Assembly: GCF_042650605.1 (NCBI RefSeq)
Contig: NZ_JBHSBN010000027.1
Span: 17,199-41,198 of the forward strand
Reading direction: 5' to 3'
Origin: Micromonospora zhanjiangensis
Lineage (GTDB): Bacteria > Actinomycetota > Actinomycetes > Mycobacteriales > Micromonosporaceae
Length of the DNA stretch: 24,000 nucleotides
Below the pieces are notes generated by a model. The model was given only the letters and a program-made list of their open reading frames with translations. It searched no databases and was not told the origin of the DNA. Positions 1,430 to 17,400 of this stretch are shown piece by piece (positions within the stretch are counted from its first letter, which is position 1; every line of letters begins with the position of its first letter). The position numbers and the translations under genes were made by a program.

Positions 1430-4353
1430 CGACCCAGCCCGACACGGCCCCGGTGGGCGTACCGGCCCGCGCCGGCACGGACCTCTCGATCGACAGCTAC
1501 CAGTCGGAGCCCGACACCGTCGAGCGGGCCGCGGCCACCCCGGACGAGCTGCAGCCGTACGCCGAACTCGGCCTCCGGGAGGACGAGTACGACCGGATCC
1601 GGCAGGTCCTCGGCCGCCGGCCGACCCAGTCCGAGTTGGCGATGTACTCGATCATGTGGAGCGAGCACTGCTCCTACAAGTCGAGCAAGGTGCACCTGCG
1701 GCAGTTCAGCGAGAAGGCGCCGCCGAGCGACCTGATGCTGGCCGGGATCGGCGAGAACGCCGGTGTCGTCCGGGTCTCCGACCGGCTCGCGGTCACCTTC
1801 AAGGTGGAGTCGCACAACCACCCGAGCTTCGTGGAGCCGTACCAGGGTGCGGCGACCGGCGTCGGCGGCATCGTCCGGGACATCCTGGCGATGGGCGCCC
1901 GACCGGTCGCGGTGATGGACCCGCTGCGGTTCGGCGCGGCCGACCACCCGGACACCGCCCGGGTGCTGCCCGGCGTGGTGGCCGGCGTCGGCGGCTACGG
2001 CAACTGCCTGGGCCTGCCGAACATCGGCGGCGAGGTGGTCTTCGACCCCTGCTACCAGGGCAACCCACTGGTCAACGCGCTGTGCCTGGGCGTGCTCCCG
2101 GTGGACCGGCTGCAGAACAAGGCGGCCGCCGGTCCCGGCAACGTCGTCGTGCTGATGGGCGCGAAGACCGGCCGAGACGGCATCGGCGGGGTCTCGGTGC
2201 TGGCCAGCGCCACCTTCGACGACGGGAGCGAGCAGCGCCGCCCGTCGGTCCAGGTGGGCGACCCGTTCACCGAGAAGCTGTTGATCGAGGCATGCCTGGA
2301 GCTGTACGACGCCGGCCTGGTGGTCGGCATCCAGGACCTCGGCGGCGCCGGCCTGACCTGCGCGCTGACCGAGACCGCCGACGCGGCCGGCACCGGCATG
2401 CGGGTCTGGCTGGAGCGGGTGCCGCTGCGCGAGCCGTCGATGCAGCCGCACGAGATCCTGGCCAGCGAGTCGCAGGAGCGGATGCTGCTGATCGTCTCGC
2501 CGGAGAAGCTGGACGCGGTGCTGGGCACCGCCGAGCGGTGGGGCGTGCTGGCCACGGCCATCGGCGAGGTCACCCCGGCGCCGGCGGAGGGCCAACGCGG
2601 CCGGCTCCTGATCACCTGGCGGGATCACGCGGTGGTCGACGTGCCGCCCGGATCGCTTGTCGACGACGGGCCGGTCTACGCCCGCCCGATGCGGGAGCCG
2701 GCCGACCTCATCCTGCTGCGGGCCGACCGGGCCGAGACGTTGCCGCGCCCGGTCACCCCGGACGCGCTCCGGGAGACCCTGCTGCGGATGGTCGCCTCGC
2801 CCAACCTGTGCGACAAGACCTGGGTCACCGAGCAGTACGACCGGTACGTCCTCGGCAACACCGTGCTGGCCCAGCCCGAGGACGCCGGCGTGATCCGGAT
2901 CGACGAGCAGACCGGCCTCGGCGTGGCGCTCTCGGTCGACGGCAACGGCCGGTACGCGCGCCTGGACCCGTACAACGGGGCGAAGCTGGCGCTCGCCGAG
3001 TCGTACCGGAACGTGGCCGTGACCGGGGCGCGTCCGGTCGCCGTGACCAACTGCCTGAACTTCGGCTCGCCGGAGGACCCGACGGTGATGTGGCAGTTCG
3101 CCGAGGCCGTCCGCGGCCTCGCCGACGGCTGTGCCGAGTTGGGCATCCCGGTCACCGGCGGCAATGTCAGCTTCTACAACCAGACCGGCGCCGCGGCGAT
3201 CCACCCGACGCCGGTGGTGGGCGTCCTGGGCATCCTGGACAACGTCGTCGAGCGGGTGCCGATGGGCTTCAGCCGCTCCGAGAACGGCGCCGAAGACGTG
3301 ATCTTCCTGCTCGGTGAGACGCACGTCGAGCTGTCCGGGTCGGAGTGGGCCTGGGTGACGCACGAGCACCTGGGCGGCGAGCCGCCCCGGGTGGACCTGG
3401 CCCGCGAGCGTGCCCTGGGTGAGTTGATCGCCGAGGCGGCCCGGGTGGGACACGTCCGGGCCGCGCACGACGTGTCCGACGGCGGACTGGCCCAGACTCT
3501 GGTCGAGTCGTGCCTGCGGCGCGGCGTGGGGGCCCGGATCGTGCTCCCGGACGCGTTCGCCGGCGGTTCCATGCCGTTCGTGTTCCTGTTCAGCGAGTCC
3601 GCCGGTCGGGTCGTGGTGGCCGTGCCGCGTGGCCACGAGAAGGCCTTCACCGGCCTGTGTGCCGAGCGCGGCGTGCCGTGGACCCCGATCGGGGTCACCG
3701 ACCCCGGCGCCGGCGAACTCGAGGTACGCGGGCAGTTCACCGTCGGCCTCGACGAGCTGCGGTCGGCGGCCACGTCGACCCTGCCGCGACTGTTCGGCGA
3801 TATCGCCGCCCCGGTGGGGCCGGTTGACGGACCGACCGGACCGGCGACTCCGGCGGATGTTCAGGCCCCGGCTCCGGCCGGGGTTCATGCCTCGGCGCAG
3901 CCCTCGACCTCGGCCGAGGTTCCGACCCCGGCGGATGTCGCGGCTCCGGCACAGCCCTCGGCCTCCGCCGGGGTGGCGGACGAGCCGTCGGGCTCCCCGG
4001 CGGGGCCGGCTGTCGCCGAATCGACGACCGGGGAGACGCCGGAGCCGGCGGGACCGGCACCGGCCGAGGACGAGCCGGCGGCGGACCCCACCCAGCGGTC
4101 GACCGAGCCGGCGGCATCCGGCGAAGCCGGAACCGCGGTGCCCACCGGTGGGCCCGGGTCGGTCGAGCCGACCGGCGGGGCCGAACCGGTGGAGCCGACC
4201 GGCGAGGCCGGAGCCGTGGCGTCGGCCGCGCCGGGCACGGTGGGATCGTCGGACGACCCGGCGAAGCCCGTCCCATCGTCCGGCACCGACGCCGGTACCG
4301 GCACCGACGCCGGTACCGGCACCGACGCCGCGTCCGATCGAGATCCGGACTGA
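1426..4353 (+). CDS. purL: Phosphoribosylformylglycinamidine synthase subunit PurL, with an unusual low-complexity C-terminal extension of about 185 aa
   Basis: PurL motifs are present: [20 protein letters not shown], two AIR-synthase-like repeats and DVSDGGL. The recognisable PurL body ends near ...STLPRLFGD (about nt 3800), but the frame stays open to the TGA at 4351-4353. Confidence 0.95.
4282..4330 (+). repeat. 18-bp tandem repeat (ggcaccgacgccggtacc, about 2.7 copies) encoding GTDAGT repeats at the end of the PurL tail
   Basis: Read directly: copies at 4282-4299 and 4300-4317, and a partial copy at 4318-4330. Confidence 0.85.
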
Positions 4354-9482: not shown

Positions 9483-10649
9483 GTGACGCACGTGACCGAG
9501 CGCAGTGGCGCAGGAGGCGGCCCGACCGGTGGTCAGGGTTCCGGAGGCGGCGACCGCCGGCCCTGGACCGCGGGAACGGGTCGAACCGGCCGTAAGCGCA
9601 GCGTGTCGTACGCGGACGCGGGCGTCTCGATCGACGCCGGCGACCGGGCCGTGGAGCTGCTCAAGTCGAAGGTGCGCGGCACCCGACGACCGGAGGTGCT
9701 GGGCGACCTCGGCGGCTTCGCCGGGTTGTTCCGGCTGGACACCAAGAAGTACCGCAATCCGATCCTGGCCTCGTCCACCGACGGGGTGGGCACCAAGCTG
9801 GTGATCGCCCAACAGCTCAACATCCACGACACGGTCGGCATCGACCTGGTGGCGATGGTCGTGGACGACCTGGTGGCGTGCGGTGCCGAGCCGCTCTTCC
9901 TGCTGGACTACATCGCCTGCGGCGAGGTGGTGCCGGACAAGGTCGCCGAGATCGGCGCGGGCATCGCCGACGGTTGCCGGTACGCCGGCTGTGCGCTGCT
10001 GGGCGGCGAGACGGCCGAGCACCCGGGTGTGCTGCGTCCCGACGAGTACGACGTGTCGGCCACCGGCGTCGGTGTGGTCGAGGAGAGCGAGCTGCTCAGC
10101 CCGGAGCGGGTCGAGGTCGGTGACGTGGTCATCGCGATGCGCTCGTCCGGGCTGCACTCCAACGGTTACTCCCTGGTCCGGCACGTGCTGCTCGGTGCGG
10201 GACGGATGCGGCTGGACACGGTGATCGAGGATTTCGGCGACCAGCGCACCCTCGGTGAGGAACTGCTGACCCCGACCGAGATCTACGCCCAGCACTGCCT
10301 CAAGCTGATCGCCGAGGCCGAGGTCCGGGCGCTCGCCCACGTCACCGGCGGCGGGATCCCGGGCAACCTGGTGCGGGTCCTGCCCGAGAACGTCGACGCG
10401 GTGGTCAACCGGGCGACGTGGAAGCCGCAGCCGATTTTCGACCTGATCCAGGCCAAGGGTCGGATCGAGGACCACGAGATGGAGTCGACCTTCAACATGG
10501 GGGTCGGCATGTTCGCCGTCGTGTCGGCCGAGGACGCCGACCGGGCGTTGGCGACTCTCACCGGTCGCGGCGTGGACGCGTGGCAGGCCGGCGAGATCAT
10601 CGAGGGCACCGGAACGGTCCAGATGATCGGTCAGCACACCCGGGGTTGA
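9483..10649 (+). CDS. purM: Phosphoribosylformylglycinamidine cyclo-ligase (AIR synthase)
   Basis: GTG at 9483 has a strong SD (AAGGGGAG, 5-nt spacer). The PurM core reads SYADAGVSIDAGDRAVELLK...DGVGTKL...GGETAEHPG. An alternative in-frame GTG at 9603 would give the canonical MSYADAG N-terminus but lacks an SD. The start is therefore uncertain while the product is secure. Confidence 0.93.
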   Translation: MTHVTERSGAGGGPTGGQGSGGGDRRPWTAGTGRTGRKRSVSYADAGVSIDAGDRAVELLKSKVRGTRRPEVLGDLGGFAGLFRLDTKKYRNPILASSTDGVGTKLVIAQQLNIHDTVGIDLVAMVVDDLVACGAEPLFLLDYIACGEVVPDKVAEIGAGIADGCRYAGCALLGGETAEHPGVLRPDEYDVSATGVGVVEESELLSPERVEVGDVVIAMRSSGLHSNGYSLVRHVLLGAGRMRLDTVIEDFGDQRTLGEELLTPTEIYAQHCLKLIAEAEVRALAHVTGGGIPGNLVRVLPENVDAVVNRATWKPQPIFDLIQAKGRIEDHEMESTFNMGVGMFAVVSAEDADRALATLTGRGVDAWQAGEIIEGTGTVQMIGQHTRG

Positions 10650-10745
10650 TCGCAATCTGTTGATCATTTTCCTACCCCTTCGGACTTCACCCGGATAGCC
10701 GTCGCCACCTAGCCTGGAGAGAACCGAGGCACGGGGGAAGGTCCG

Positions 10746-11915
10746 ATGGCGGTTGTCCGTTCGGCACGTTCCGCGGCGCAGGTGCGTCCGGAGGCGTACG
10801 AGCCTGCCGGGATGCGGGGCATCGCCGACGTGCCGTCGTACGTCGTGATGCAGCCGACCACCCTGTGCAACCTCGACTGCGCGTACTGTTACCTGCCGCT
10901 GCGGGCGGTCGACCGGCGGATGCCGGTCGAGGTCGCCGAGGCGGTGGCCGGCCCGGTGAACCGGTGGGCCGGTGCCGGCCGGTTCTCGGTGGTCTGGCAC
11001 GGTGGCGAGCCGTTGGCGGCGGGGCGGGAGCATCTGGCCGCGCTGGTCGCCCCGTTCGACGACGCGGTCGAGCACCACGTGCAGACCAACGCGACCCTGA
11101 TCGACGACGACTGGTGCGACTTCTTCACCGAGCACCGGATCCGGGTGAGCGTCAGCGTCGACGGGCCCCGGGAGCGCAACGACGCCCGGGTGACCCGGGG
11201 TGGCCACCCGTCGTACGACCGGGTCCTGCGGGGGGTGGAGGCGCTGCGGCGGCACGGGATCGGCTTCTCCGCGCTCTGCGTGGTGTCCCGGCCGGAGCCC
11301 GGCCTGGCGGCCGAGCTCTATTCCTACTTTCTCGACCTTGGCTGCGACGTGCTCGGGCTGAACATCGAGGAGATGGAGGGGGTGAACACCCGGGGGAACC
11401 GCCATCCGGCGCCGGCCGTGACCGCGTTCTGGTCGGAGTTGACCGCGGCCTGGCGCAGCGACCCGCGGATCCATCTCCGGGAAATCGAGTGGAGCCTGCG
11501 GTACGCCGCCGCCGTGCTGGACGGCACCGAGGACGACCTGCTGCCGCGTCACCTGGATCCGATCCCGACCGTCGGTCACGACGGTTCGGTGGTCCTGCTC
11601 TCACCCGAGCTGGCCGGTTTCTCCGACCCGCGCTACGGCGACTTCAGCAGCGGCAACGTGCTGACCGACGGGCTGGCGCAGATCCTGGCCCGTCCCGGTG
11701 GCACGCCCTGGGTGGCCGAGTTCCTGGCCGGGGTGCAGGCGTGCCGGGTGAAGTGTCCGTATTTCAGCTTCTGCGGAGGTGGCCACGCGGCCAACCGGTA
11801 CTTCGAGCACGGGCGGTTCGACGGTACGGAGACCGACCACTGCCGGAACAGCAAGATCCGCCTATTGGAGGGAGTGTTGGCGCATGCCCGAGACCACCAG
11901 CCGACAGTGGCCTGA
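10746..11915 (+). CDS. Radical SAM peptide-maturase-like enzyme (SPASM/twitch-type C-terminal Cys cluster; looks GrrM/OscB-type or anSME-like)
   Basis: ATG at 10746 follows GGGGGAAGG. The CX3CX2C motif (TTLCNLDCAYCYLP) lies only about 40 aa from the N-terminus, and the GGE-type motif VVWHGGEPL is present. The C-terminal sequence is VQACRVKCPYFSFCGGGHAANRYFEHGRFDGTETDHC. GC3 bias is strong. The subfamily assignment is from memory, not a search. Confidence 0.85.
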   Translation: MAVVRSARSAAQVRPEAYEPAGMRGIADVPSYVVMQPTTLCNLDCAYCYLPLRAVDRRMPVEVAEAVAGPVNRWAGAGRFSVVWHGGEPLAAGREHLAALVAPFDDAVEHHVQTNATLIDDDWCDFFTEHRIRVSVSVDGPRERNDARVTRGGHPSYDRVLRGVEALRRHGIGFSALCVVSRPEPGLAAELYSYFLDLGCDVLGLNIEEMEGVNTRGNRHPAPAVTAFWSELTAAWRSDPRIHLREIEWSLRYAAAVLDGTEDDLLPRHLDPIPTVGHDGSVVLLSPELAGFSDPRYGDFSSGNVLTDGLAQILARPGGTPWVAEFLAGVQACRVKCPYFSFCGGGHAANRYFEHGRFDGTETDHCRNSKIRLLEGVLAHARDHQPTVA

Positions 11916-12129
11916 CCGCCCGTACGGGATCGACGTCGAGGAGTCCACCGGCAATCACGTGGCCGCGCGCGTGCGCGGGGCCAGGACCGGATTCGAGGCG
12001 CTGCTGCGCGAGGCCGACGACGCGCGCCGGCATCGGGCCGAGGCGACCGGTGACGGCACGGCGGTGTGTGCCTGGAACCACTTCGAGAACATCCCGACGT
12101 TCTACAACTGGAACAACCGGCCGCGCTGA
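11884..12129 (+). CDS. 81-aa candidate RiPP precursor peptide (leader plus aromatic/Asn-rich C-terminal core)
   Basis: ATG at 11884 has GGAGGGAG 9 nt upstream and overlaps the last 32 nt of the rSAM gene in another frame. The codons are C/G-ending (aac, ttc, tac, cac), as expected for a real gene in this genome. The product is MPETTSRQWPDRPYGIDVEESTGNHVAARVRGARTGFEALLREADDARRHRAEATGDGTAVCAWNHFENIPTFYNWNNRPR. Confidence 0.6.
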   Translation: MPETTSRQWPDRPYGIDVEESTGNHVAARVRGARTGFEALLREADDARRHRAEATGDGTAVCAWNHFENIPTFYNWNNRPR

Positions 12130-12163
12130 CCGGATCGCCCGCAGCATGAGGCGTGGAGTGAGC

Positions 12164-12219
12164 TCAGGGACCTGCCGTGCCAGGTGGAATCGGACGATCC
12201 ACCCCGGTCAGGTCCCTGA
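12164..12219 (+). terminator. Nested stem-loop 35 nt after the precursor stop; probable operon terminator or 3' stabiliser
   Basis: The outer 11-bp stem is tcagggacctg/caggtccctga (12164-12174 / 12209-12219). The inner 6-bp stem is ggtgga/tccacc (12183-12188 / 12198-12203). Confidence 0.45.
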
Positions 12220-12278
12220 CCTCGCTTCGGGGATGTAAGACGGTTCGACGGTGCGCGTCGCACCACTCGGACATGCGT

Positions 12279-12304
12279 GAGCACGCGGGTGTTACCGCGT
12301 GCTC
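12279..12304 (-). terminator. Perfect 10-bp hairpin just downstream of the DUF3073 gene stop
   Basis: The stem is gagcacgcgg-gtgtta-ccgcgtgctc. It lies 15 nt beyond the stop at 12319-12321 on the minus strand. There is no clear U-tract, so it is an I-shaped terminator of the kind common in actinomycetes. Confidence 0.5.
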
Positions 12305-12318
12305 AAATATGCCTGAGG

Positions 12319-12534
12319 TCAGCGGGCCGGAGGAGCCCAGTGTCCTGGGCCGTCCTCATCATGATCCTCGTCATCGTCGTCGACATACTCTTTGTAGTCG
12401 TCGTCGAAGTCGTGGTCCGACTTGCCGCTGCCGCCGAGTTCTCGCTGCAAGGCGGCGAGGTCGGTGTTCGGGGAGTGGTACTTCAACTCCCGGGCCACCT
12501 TTGTCTGCTTGGCCTTAGCACGGCCGCGCCCCAT
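12319..12534 (-). CDS. DUF3073 family small protein (basic N-terminus, acidic C-terminus)
   Basis: ATG at 12534 follows GAGGGGG. The product is MGRGRAKAKQTKVARELKYHSPNTDLAALQRELGG...DDDYKEYVDDDDEDHDED, the typical actinobacterial DUF3073 sequence. The ORF-track start at 12597 was rejected. Confidence 0.85.
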   Translation of the reverse strand: MGRGRAKAKQTKVARELKYHSPNTDLAALQRELGGSGKSDHDFDDDYKEYVDDDDEDHDEDGPGHWAPPAR

Positions 12535-12694
12535 GGCTCGACCCCCTCGCACAGAATTCGGGGCAGCCCAAAGGCGGGCCCCGATGACGTTAGGCATCTC
12601 TCGTGGCTCTTACGGTACATGGGGAGGCCCCGGTTCGGCACCTCGGGTTCCGGTCGACCGCGCGTCCGCGTTTCGCGGCGCCCGGTCGTAACAG

Positions 12695-12723
12695 ATTGTA
12701 GCCGGTAACGAACTGTTCGCCAA
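12695..12723 (-). promoter_or_regulatory. Candidate HrdB-type promoter for the DUF3073 gene (TTGGCG-17-TACAAT)
   Basis: On the minus strand, TACAAT is at 12700-12695 and TTGGCG at 12723-12718, with a 17-nt spacer. Both lie in a locally AT-richer stretch. This would give a leader of about 150 nt. The call rests on a motif match only. Confidence 0.3.
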
Positions 12724-12779
12724 TCAACCGTTACCTGTCCGCGCCGGTCCGGGCACCCGCCGGTGCCGGTGATCGACGC

Positions 12780-12834
12780 GATCAAGGACTCTTCCGTCGT
12801 AAATGACCCAAACCACCGCGAAGAGCCCTTGATC
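12780..12834 (-). terminator. Stem-loop 15 nt downstream of the vdh stop
   Basis: gatcaaggActcttc pairs with gaagagCccttgatc: 14 bp plus one mismatch, with a 25-nt loop. Confidence 0.4.
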
Positions 12835-15213: not shown

Positions 15214-15423
15214 ATGGCATCGCGTACGCACGAACCTGAGCCGCTACTCACACCGGCCGAGGTGGCGTCGATGTTCCGCGTCGACCCGAAGACCGTGACC
15301 CGGTGGGCGAAGGCGGGCAAGCTGAGCGCCATTCGCACGCTGGGCGGCCACCGCCGCTATCGCGAGTCGGAGGTTCGCGCTCTGCTGCAGGGGCAGATTC
15401 CCCAGCAGCGTCAAGGCGACTGA
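15214..15423 (+). CDS. bldC: BldC, small MerR/excisionase-like developmental DNA-binding regulator
   Basis: ATG follows GGAGGAG. The product MASRTHEPEPLLTPAEVASMFRVDPKTVTRWAKAGKLSAIRTLGGHRRYRESEVRALLQG is nearly identical to the Streptomyces BldC core as I remember it. Confidence 0.92.
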   Translation: MASRTHEPEPLLTPAEVASMFRVDPKTVTRWAKAGKLSAIRTLGGHRRYRESEVRALLQGQIPQQRQGD

Positions 15424-16739: not shown

Positions 16740-16768
16740 GTCCGGCTGACCCGACCGGTCAGCCGGAC
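16740..16768. terminator. 12-bp perfect hairpin spanning the gap between convergent genes and overlapping the TetR stop
   Basis: gtccggctgacc-cgacc-ggtcagccggac lies between the methyltransferase stop (16734-16736) and the TetR stop (16759-16761). Confidence 0.55.
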
Positions 16769-17400
16769 GGGAACGGCGGTTCGGCGGGAATGCCGGCGGT
16801 CAGCGCGGCGAACGCGCGCCGGCGCAGCGCGGCCAGCGAGCCGGTGCCGTCGCCGGCCGACCAGGCCTGCAACGCCACGTCCCAGGAGGAGACGGCGGCC
16901 GTGGCGACCAGCAACGGGTACGGGTCGGTGGCGGGCAGCCCGGTGCGTTCGGCGACGAAATCCTGGAAGACCTGGCGCAGCTCGTTGTTGAGCAACAGGT
17001 ACATGCCCGTCAGCGACGGCTGGCGGTCCATCAGCCGGAGCCGGGTGATGATCTGCACCTGCTCGTCCTGGTCGAAGTCGAGCGCGTCCAGCACCGCGCC
17101 GACGGCCAACAACGGTGACTCGTCGGGCGGACTGGCGGCCAACGCGGCGCGCAGGTGGTTGATCCGCTGGTGCGCCACGTCACCGAAGAGCACGTGCTGC
17201 TTGGACGAGAAGTACCGGAAGAAGGTGCGGACGGCGACGTCGGCGGTCTCCGCGATCTCCTCGACGGTGGTGTGTTCGTACCCCTTCTCCGCGAACAGGC
17301 GCAGCGCCGCCCGCTCCAGCGCCGCCCGGGTCTCCTGCTTCTTGCGTTCCCGGCGGCTGGTGGGCAACTCGACGGAGACGCCGATCTCGGACGTCGTCAC
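16759..17400 (-). CDS. TetR/AcrR family transcriptional regulator
   Basis: GTG at 17400. The N-terminal HTH is RRERKKQETRAALERAALRLFAEKGYEHTTVEEIAETADVAVRTFFRYFSSK. Confidence 0.9.
   Translation of the reverse strand: MTTSEIGVSVELPTSRRERKKQETRAALERAALRLFAEKGYEHTTVEEIAETADVAVRTFFRYFSSKQHVLFGDVAHQRINHLRAALAASPPDESPLLAVGAVLDALDFDQDEQVQIITRLRLMDRQPSLTGMYLLLNNELRQVFQDFVAERTGLPATDPYPLLVATAAVSSWDVALQAWSAGDGTGSLAALRRRAFAALTAGIPAEPPFPSG

Follow-up and report, generated by a model that had tools for sequence, protein, structure and literature searches.

The amcBA locus

We analysed a 24,000-nucleotide stretch of Micromonospora zhanjiangensis DNA (contig NZ_JBHSBN010000027.1, positions 17,199 to 41,198; hereafter the window), in which a small gene, amcA, lies directly behind a gene for a radical S-adenosylmethionine (SAM) enzyme, amcB. 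The original prediction, made from the letters, had taken the end of the small gene for the core of a post-translationally modified, ribosomally synthesized peptide (RiPP) that is matured by a three-residue-cyclophane radical SAM enzyme. The locus is an amcB-amcA cassette, a RiPP unit of two genes for which NCBIfam and Pfam already have names and models. Its features, all on the forward strand, are as follows (aa, amino acids; nt, nucleotides).

10746..11915, +: amcB, cyclophane-forming radical SAM peptide maturase by annotation (NF041718, RefSeq WP_377551472.1)
11869..11876, +: Shine-Dalgarno-like GGAGGGAG within the amcB 3' end, 7 nt before the amcA ATG (sequence inspection)
11884..12129, +: amcA, 81-aa precursor peptide (MPETTSRQWP...NWNNRPR and stop; exact RefSeq match, PF28164, NF041722)
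11938..12045, +: leader segment that is conserved and predicted to be helical (residues 19-54; motif xRVxxxxxGLxxLLxEAxxARRxRAE; AlphaFold2)
12046..12060, +: variable Gly/Asp/Ser-rich linker TGDGT joining the leader helix to the core; length and sequence differ among homologues
12061..12126, +: invariant 22-aa core AVCAWNHFENIPTFYNWNNRPR (identity across orthologues)
12073..12081, +: W-N-H, possible fourth ring motif, not universal (W-R-[P/T/A/S] in subtype 3b; Hamadaea-type precursors have Pro for the Trp, GPRPFED)
12082..12090, +: F-E-N, predicted cyclophane motif 1, Phe ring to Asn Cβ (F-E-D in 3b, W-T-D in L076)
12100..12108, +: F-Y-N, predicted cyclophane motif 2 (F-Y-[Q/E] in 3b, F-T-E in L076, F-F-N in P0123)
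12109..12117, +: W-N-N, predicted cyclophane motif 3 (F-[T/S]-N in 3b, F-S-N in L076)
12118..12126, +: conserved C-terminal tail R-P-R (R79 and P80 invariant in alignments A1 and A3)

The amcA open reading frame (ORF) starts at the ATG at 11884, encodes 81 aa and ends in AVCAWNHFENIPTFYNWNNRPR; the interval 12046-12129 of the forward strand is translated as TGDGTAVCAWNHFENIPTFYNWNNRPR and then a stop. It overlaps amcB by 32 nt (11884-11915, with the amcB stop codon at 11913-11915), a similar overlap is found at homologous loci, and the two genes may be translationally coupled. The N-terminal MPE(T/I)T is kept in more than 100 homologues. AmcA scored 108.2 bits on NF041722 (phane_AmcA_3a; cutoff 65, E = 2.3e-31), and the exact protein is present in RefSeq as 'multiple cyclophane-containing RiPP AmcA [Micromonospora zhanjiangensis]' with the Pfam assignment PF28164 AmcA_3a. 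Thus, the novelty that the original prediction implied does not hold. The words 'multiple cyclophane' in the RefSeq name are themselves a prediction by homology. A sub-threshold match of AmcA to Pfam DUF2293 was rejected. We conclude that amcA probably encodes the precursor of a ring-crosslinked peptide for the adjoining AmcB, with chemistry of the triceptide-synthase lineage and rings at FEN, FYN, and WNN.

The last 20 residues of AmcA contain six aromatic residues (W, H, F, F, Y, W, counting His) and five Asn, just as had been counted. At least six aromatic residues together with at least five Asn were found in only 4 of the 38,718 stop-free 20-aa windows in the six frames of the 24-kb window, all four overlapping AmcA, and the genes neighbouring amcA contain 2.3% Asn and 7.9% W/F/Y/H. 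This composition is not due to chance, and amcA is a real gene. The core has a GC content of 0.606 against 0.722 for the whole window. It had been described as the most AT-rich coding stretch nearby; its GC content is indeed low, with a rank in the bottom 3.5% of the 66-nt windows overall and in the bottom 4.4% of those within purF..amcA, yet some windows are lower still. Since the GC content at third codon positions stays at 0.95, with C-ending codons retained at 12 of the 22 positions as had been noted, the low GC content of the core is due to amino-acid choice and not to an altered codon preference.

AmcA begins with a variable N-terminus, after which come a leader helix that is amphipathic and conserved, a linker rich in Gly and Asp that varies, and the invariant core. 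AlphaFold2, run on an alignment of 42 sequences, predicted leader helices at residues 19-32 and 34-54 with a predicted local distance difference test (pLDDT) of 84-96 in this block, and left the core unstructured (pLDDT 52-60). The charged, helical leader proposed earlier is therefore retained, its length being refined from about 55 residues to 59 aa, followed by the invariant block of 22 aa (12061-12126). Within the leader, R29, G36, A44, and R51 are invariant, and L40 and E43 are nearly so. The combination of a predicted leader helix and a disordered core is consistent with leader-guided modification, in which the helix would serve as the recognition element for AmcB.

Conservation of the AmcA core

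A protein search over 5.8 billion proteins returned 1,083 relatives of AmcA, of which the best 120 clusters were compared. The C-terminal AVCAWNHFENIPTFYNWNNRPR is identical in 116 of these 120, and the four exceptions consist of one I-to-V change, one V-to-L change, and two sequences with one additional C-terminal residue. The leaders of the same relatives are only about 55-80% identical. A genome comparison covered the best 80 Micromonosporaceae loci with an AmcB orthologue, which represent Micromonospora, Plantactinospora, Actinoplanes, Paractinoplanes, Asanoa, Phytohabitans, Pilimelia, Rugosimonospora, and Hamadaea; Salinispora and Dactylosporangium are not among them. amcA lies directly 3' of amcB in all 80 loci, and the 22-aa core is identical in 74 of the genomes while the leader diverges. 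When 75 orthologous cores were compared at the nucleotide level, 60 distinct sequences were obtained with 14 variable positions, all of which are third codon positions and synonymous, and none non-synonymous. Amino-acid changes in the core are thus not tolerated, which bears out the selection on the amino-acid sequence that the original prediction had argued for.

Other cores are found at the six loci whose AmcB diverges most (67-69% identity; 479-496 bits on NF041718); they follow the patterns WR[PTAS]FEDAFPTFY[QE]F[TS]NRPR and WTDVFTTQFTEFSNRPR. The first pattern is that of subtype 3b (NF041723; 120 clusters), whose consensus reads W-R-[P/T/A/S]-F-E-D-[A/S]-F-P-T-F-Y-[Q/E]-F-[T/S]-N-[R/K]-P-x, as distinct from subtype 3a, to which the M. 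zhanjiangensis precursor belongs. Hamadaea-type precursors lack the Trp (GPRPFED...), and their AmcB scores above the cutoff. A third subtype is encoded at positions 3830-4048 of locus L076, a metagenome-assembled genome (Micromonosporaceae bacterium Dino_bin41); this precursor ends in ...RWTDVFTTQFTEFSNRPR and has the core R-W-T-D-V-F-T-T-Q-F-T-E-F-S-N-R-P-R. The L076 AmcB passes NF041718 with 490.9 bits, and the L076 precursor gave no match to either of the two AmcA hidden Markov models (best score 12 bits), indicating that the present annotation models would miss it.

A search of 1.84 billion representative sequences recovered leader-divergent copies of the same core together with two natural variants, P0123, in which Tyr15 of the core is Phe, and P0125, in which Cys3 is Ser. 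The same core gave a summed E value of 2.8e-8 with P0137, a 678-aa repeat protein that carries seven copies of SACSWEYWKNLPTLSSWH and agrees with the AmcA core in register at C, W, N, P, T, and W. The seven weak matches were taken as chance amplified by the repeats, and P0137 was rejected as a relative of AmcA.

Comparison of the subtypes gives a map of the putative ring positions. The first triad is kept in all three subtypes as aromatic-x-[N/D] (FEN, FED, or WTD), the second as F-x-[N/Q/E] (FYN, FYQ, FYE, or FTE), and the third as aromatic-x-N (WNN, FTN, or FSN) followed by R-P. F67 and E68 of the first motif are invariant in alignment A3, as are F73 of the second and N78 of the third among the compared sequences. 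Position 79 is Lys in one 3b cluster outside alignments A1 and A3 (FTNKPR), and the tail occurs as NRPR, NRPPR, NRPRG, and NRPQK across the subtypes. Cys is limited to subtype 3a and is absent from 3b and L076, and Tyr15, which is Phe in P0123, is Thr in L076. FEN, FYN, and WNN are therefore the conserved motifs on this map; WNH can be absent, and the precursors can do without Cys and Tyr. The conservation of the aromatic/Asn pattern, proposed earlier as a check, was thus found both in the identical cores and in the divergent subtypes, and the three triads singled out as ring motifs are exactly those kept. Asn is not the rule at position 3, as had been supposed, since N/D, N/Q/E, and N are observed at the three motifs.

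AmcB and related radical SAM enzymes

The longest amcB ORF starts at the ATG at 10746 and encodes 389 aa, whereas the RefSeq protein starts at the ATG at 10812 and has 367 aa. The exact 367-aa sequence is WP_377551472.1, named 'cyclophane-forming radical SAM peptide maturase AmcB', and AmcB matched NF041718 with 520.4 bits (cutoff 425) over model positions 1-361 of 362. The start is ambiguous: a GGGGGAAGG motif stands just 5' of the ATG at 10746, and the first ~20 residues of the long ORF are not conserved, the tblastn matches of orthologues starting at residues 19-22. In GCA_054778155.1, an assembly of the same species (L081:4865-6032), two single-base gaps within amcB split it into two fragments of 204 and 177 aa. 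Another assembly (L082) is identical to the window and has an intact amcB, and the gaps are probably an assembly indel error and not a real pseudogene.

Radical_SAM was the only Pfam match of AmcB (65 bits). The radical SAM motif CNLDCAYC is present, and its CX3CX2C cysteines (C41, C45, and C48) are invariant in all 81 orthologues examined, as are four C-terminal cysteines, C333-x3-C337-x5-C343 ... C366. His347 occupies the site of the fourth Cys of the SPASM motif of anaerobic sulfatase-maturating enzymes. The Pfam scan of AmcB gave no SPASM match, and the canonical seven-Cys SPASM motif (CX9-15GX4C ... CX2CX5CX3C ... C), which holds two auxiliary clusters, differs from the arrangement in AmcB. 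AmcB thus appears to have one four-Cys auxiliary-cluster motif, and the number of clusters would be correspondingly reduced. For a RiPP recognition element, Pfam gave no PqqD match in AmcB and no small PqqD-like gene was present among the called neighbours. With the radical SAM motif starting as early as residue 41 of the long ORF, there is no room for an N-terminal domain.

MscA and MscB, a characterised triceptide system of Micromonospora origin, belong to the FxsA/FxsB family and differ from AmcA and AmcB in the enzyme family and in the F-x-S motif that is modified. Their product contains a three-residue cyclophane between Phe-C4 and Ser-Cβ (PMC11002830, which also lists the accession of the enzyme). 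The radical SAM family that scored highest on AmcB after the AmcB model was GrrM/OscB (TIGR04261), with 241.2 bits against a cutoff of 310. Lower scores were obtained for DynA (113.9 bits, cutoff 450), YhhB (105 bits, cutoff 445), FxsB (TIGR04269; 96.7 bits, cutoff 370), DarW (93.5 bits, cutoff 650), and DarE (64.6 bits, cutoff 650), and the models of the thioether synthases PapB and StsB gave 61.9 bits (cutoff 340) and 41 bits (cutoff 625). The equivalog scores of AmcA and AmcB, with GrrM/OscB as the next-best family, agree with the assignment of a RiPP core to a three-residue-cyclophane radical SAM enzyme.

Triceptides are peptides with aromatic-to-Cβ crosslinks on aromatic1-X2-X3 motifs, made by radical SAM enzymes that form three-residue cyclophanes (3-CyFEs; PMC11499958). 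The AmcA core contains such motifs (WNH, FEN, FYN, and WNN), its partner enzyme is of the 3-CyFE type, and the top-scoring families of AmcB include cyclophane-forming maturases. The number of putative triceptide pathways has been put at about 3,900, with ten maturases characterised (PMC11499958), and AmcB may be among the uncharacterised ones. OscB joins Trp-C7 or Phe-C4 to the Cβ of Asn or Asp at i+2 (PMC11002830), and these residue types are those of FEN, FED, FYN, and WNN. The match of GrrM/OscB to AmcB extends over the full length at 33-36% identity, although the score below the cutoff makes AmcB a member of a sister family and not of GrrM/OscB itself. The precursors differ as well: the core of AmcA is single and non-repetitive and follows a helical leader, and an NCBIfam scan at E values up to 10 returned only the two AmcA models and no match to the GrrA/OscA1 precursor model. 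Compared with GrrM/OscB, the amcBA cassette is chromosomal, belongs to the core genome, and was found only in Micromonosporaceae among everything retrieved.

ChlB is a radical SAM multiple-cyclophane synthase with structures in the PDB (9gm3 and 9gmc; Ruel et al. 2025, as cited in PMC12912966). Like AmcB, it has a reduced auxiliary motif, and C-x3-C-x5-C-GGG-H...C of AmcB aligns with C-x2-C-x5-C-GGG-S...C of ChlB. ChlB installs several three-residue cyclophanes on one precursor, as AmcB is predicted to do. The relationship is distant (E = 7e-12, 48 bits), and ChlB modifies Tyr motifs (YDR; PMC11499958). By the title of a paper in Nat. Chem. (2024), ChlB is among the radical SAM proteins fused to an α-ketoglutarate (αKG)-HExxH domain, a domain that AmcB lacks. 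The darobactin and dynobactin enzymes DarE and DynA belong to the same radical SAM lineage as AmcB, and dynobactin has aromatic-to-Cβ links including Trp-Asn (PMC10288494). In contrast to AmcA, however, these peptides have fused rings, ether or C-N links, and W-x-W-type cores; AmcA has no W-x-W, its nearest motif being Y-N-W. Minviopeptin (PMC12912966) and the aminomalonate cascade (PMC12186529) were set aside as unrelated systems.

Proposed ring formation and alternatives

A mechanism can be drawn by homology with OscB, XncB, and ChlB. AmcB would bind the leader helix of AmcA and cleave SAM reductively, and the resulting 5'-deoxyadenosyl radical would take the Cβ hydrogen from position 3 of an aromatic-X-X triad. 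The Cβ radical would then attack the aromatic ring of position 1, and re-aromatisation would leave an aryl-C(sp2)-Cβ(sp3) crosslink with a loss of 2 Da per ring. By analogy, radical cyclophane chemistry on AmcA would most likely give rings at F8-E9-N10, F14-Y15-N16, and W17-N18-N19 (core numbering), with an expected change of -6 Da in total. The leader would subsequently be cut off by a protease encoded elsewhere. The conservation of the three triads in all subtypes supports the three-ring proposal at FEN, FYN, and WNN.

Several points weigh against this proposal. With AmcB below the GrrM/OscB cutoff and at the identity given above, neither the regiochemistry nor the number of rings is transferable with certainty. 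The sequence may also be read in the overlapping registers H-F-E and Y-N-W. The conserved neighbourhood contains no protease or exporter gene that would account for maturation and release. In the literature searched, no paper was found on AmcA with cyclophane or on any fragment of the core, although a subscription journal may contain such a report; likewise, no paper in that literature tied triceptides or cyclophane radical SAM enzymes to this Micromonospora system.

W5-N6-H7 could form a fourth ring between the Trp ring and the Cβ of His, bringing the total change to -8 Da. W64, which is W5 of the core, is nearly invariant (at least 90%) across 3a and 3b, and triceptide synthases take Ala, Ser, Lys, Arg, Asn, and Asp at position 3 (PMC11002830; PMC12912966). 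However, the third residue of this triad varies, being H in 3a and P, T, A, or S in 3b, and the Trp itself is Pro in the Hamadaea-type precursors, which are paired with an AmcB above the cutoff. We therefore regard a four-ring product as possible but on the unlikely side.

Another alternative leaves the cyclophane chemistry untouched and bears on what the product does. The product might be a lineage-wide physiological molecule, such as an intracellular or signalling peptide or the precursor of a cofactor-like fragment, as in the cases of pyrroloquinoline quinone (PQQ) and mycofactocin, and not a secreted natural product. Across at least nine genera the leader drifts and the core does not change, the cassette occupies a set place in the core genome within the purine operon region, genes for an exporter, a protease or immunity are absent from its surroundings, and no copy was detected on the plasmids searched. 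On the other hand, PQQ and mycofactocin need several dedicated tailoring genes, which are absent here, and the invariance of the core is equally explicable by a conserved external target. We consider such a role rather unlikely. The same reserve applies to a fuller version, in which the product would be a polycyclophane that does not vary, is inherited vertically, and serves housekeeping or development throughout the Micromonosporaceae (for example as an envelope factor, a metal- or cofactor-like ligand, or a signal) in place of being an antibiotic that differs between strains, possibly with a novel ring topology that includes a fourth Trp-to-His ring or fused Tyr/Trp rings. An invariant core, vertical inheritance, and the lack of export and immunity genes are unusual for antibiotic RiPPs, and it is a matter of speculation that they hint at a conserved physiological role. 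They also raise the question of why a RiPP core stays frozen across a whole bacterial family.

The original prediction had further suggested a fused bicyclic unit on Y-N-W-N-N by analogy with darobactin, that is, Tyr-to-Trp and Trp-to-Asn links on Y15-N16-W17-N18-N19. An aromatic-X-aromatic triad, Y-[N/Q/E]-[W/F], is kept in 3a and 3b, and AmcB, DarE, and DynA belong to one enzyme superfamily. Nevertheless, Tyr15 is replaced in P0123 and L076, the universally conserved register is F14-x-[N/Q/E], the core has no W-x-W motif, and AmcB lies far below the DarE, DarW, and DynA cutoffs, so that a fused bicycle appears quite improbable. A sactionine or ranthionine thioether formed by AmcB on the single Cys in place of aromatic links, which had been named as an outcome that would overturn the prediction, is hardly credible: many SPASM-type radical SAM enzymes make thioethers and Cys3 is invariant in nearly all 3a clusters, but the 3b and L076 precursors lack Cys despite an orthologous AmcB, P0125 is a natural Cys-to-Ser variant, and the PapB and StsB models score very low on AmcB.

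With rings at FEN, FYN, and WNN as the preferred reading, the finding is a correct independent rediscovery of the annotated AmcA/AmcB family, whose product appears uncharacterised. Its value as a discovery is small, the AmcA/AmcB pair being known to curators and both genes being named automatically by annotation pipelines; reasoning from the sequence alone arrived where the curated models do. With only two genes, the cassette is a minimal system; its core is unusually invariant, and the genus abounds in natural products. These features make it an easy target for heterologous expression.

Genomic context of amcBA

The cassette lies in a purine-biosynthesis neighbourhood, in which purQ, purL, a gene for a secreted protein, purF, and purM precede amcB and amcA. 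A DUF3073 gene and a gene for an amino-acid dehydrogenase of the Glu/Leu/Phe/Val family are convergent with amcA on its 3' side, followed further on by a DUF8083 gene and a BldC-like regulator gene. Features outside the cassette are as follows.

12152..12231, no strand assigned: long GC-rich hairpin in the gap that separates amcA from the convergent DUF3073 gene (RNA fold)
12319-12597, -: DUF3073 gene (acidic protein, 92 aa), convergent neighbour of amcA
15214-15423, +: 69-aa MerR/HTH_17 protein resembling the developmental regulator BldC
16759-17400, -: TetR regulator with an MftR-type C-terminal domain, adjoining a 3-hydroxyacyl-CoA dehydrogenase gene

The BldC-like protein and the TetR regulator have no evident tie to amcAB. 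The order purF-purM-amcB-amcA-DUF3073-LeuDH (the last being the dehydrogenase gene) is kept in 79 of the 80 loci; the exception is Hamadaea (L080), whose DUF3073 and dehydrogenase genes are rearranged downstream. No protease, transporter or tailoring gene was found in the conserved block across the 80 loci. A search of 72,556 plasmids detected no AmcB and only GrrM-type relatives with at most 36% identity.

An Rfam scan of 10400-12800 gave no match near the gathering score, and consensus scans for promoters and terminators found nothing, including a T-tract terminator at the hairpin (12152-12231). The RNA fold of 12125-12260 (136 nt) has a free energy of -66.9 kcal/mol with z = -2.7, and the hairpin may be a bidirectional terminator of the actinobacterial type. 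DUF3073 genes also stand beside purM in other actinobacteria. Thus, amcBA looks like a family-specific insertion at the junction between purM and the DUF3073 gene.

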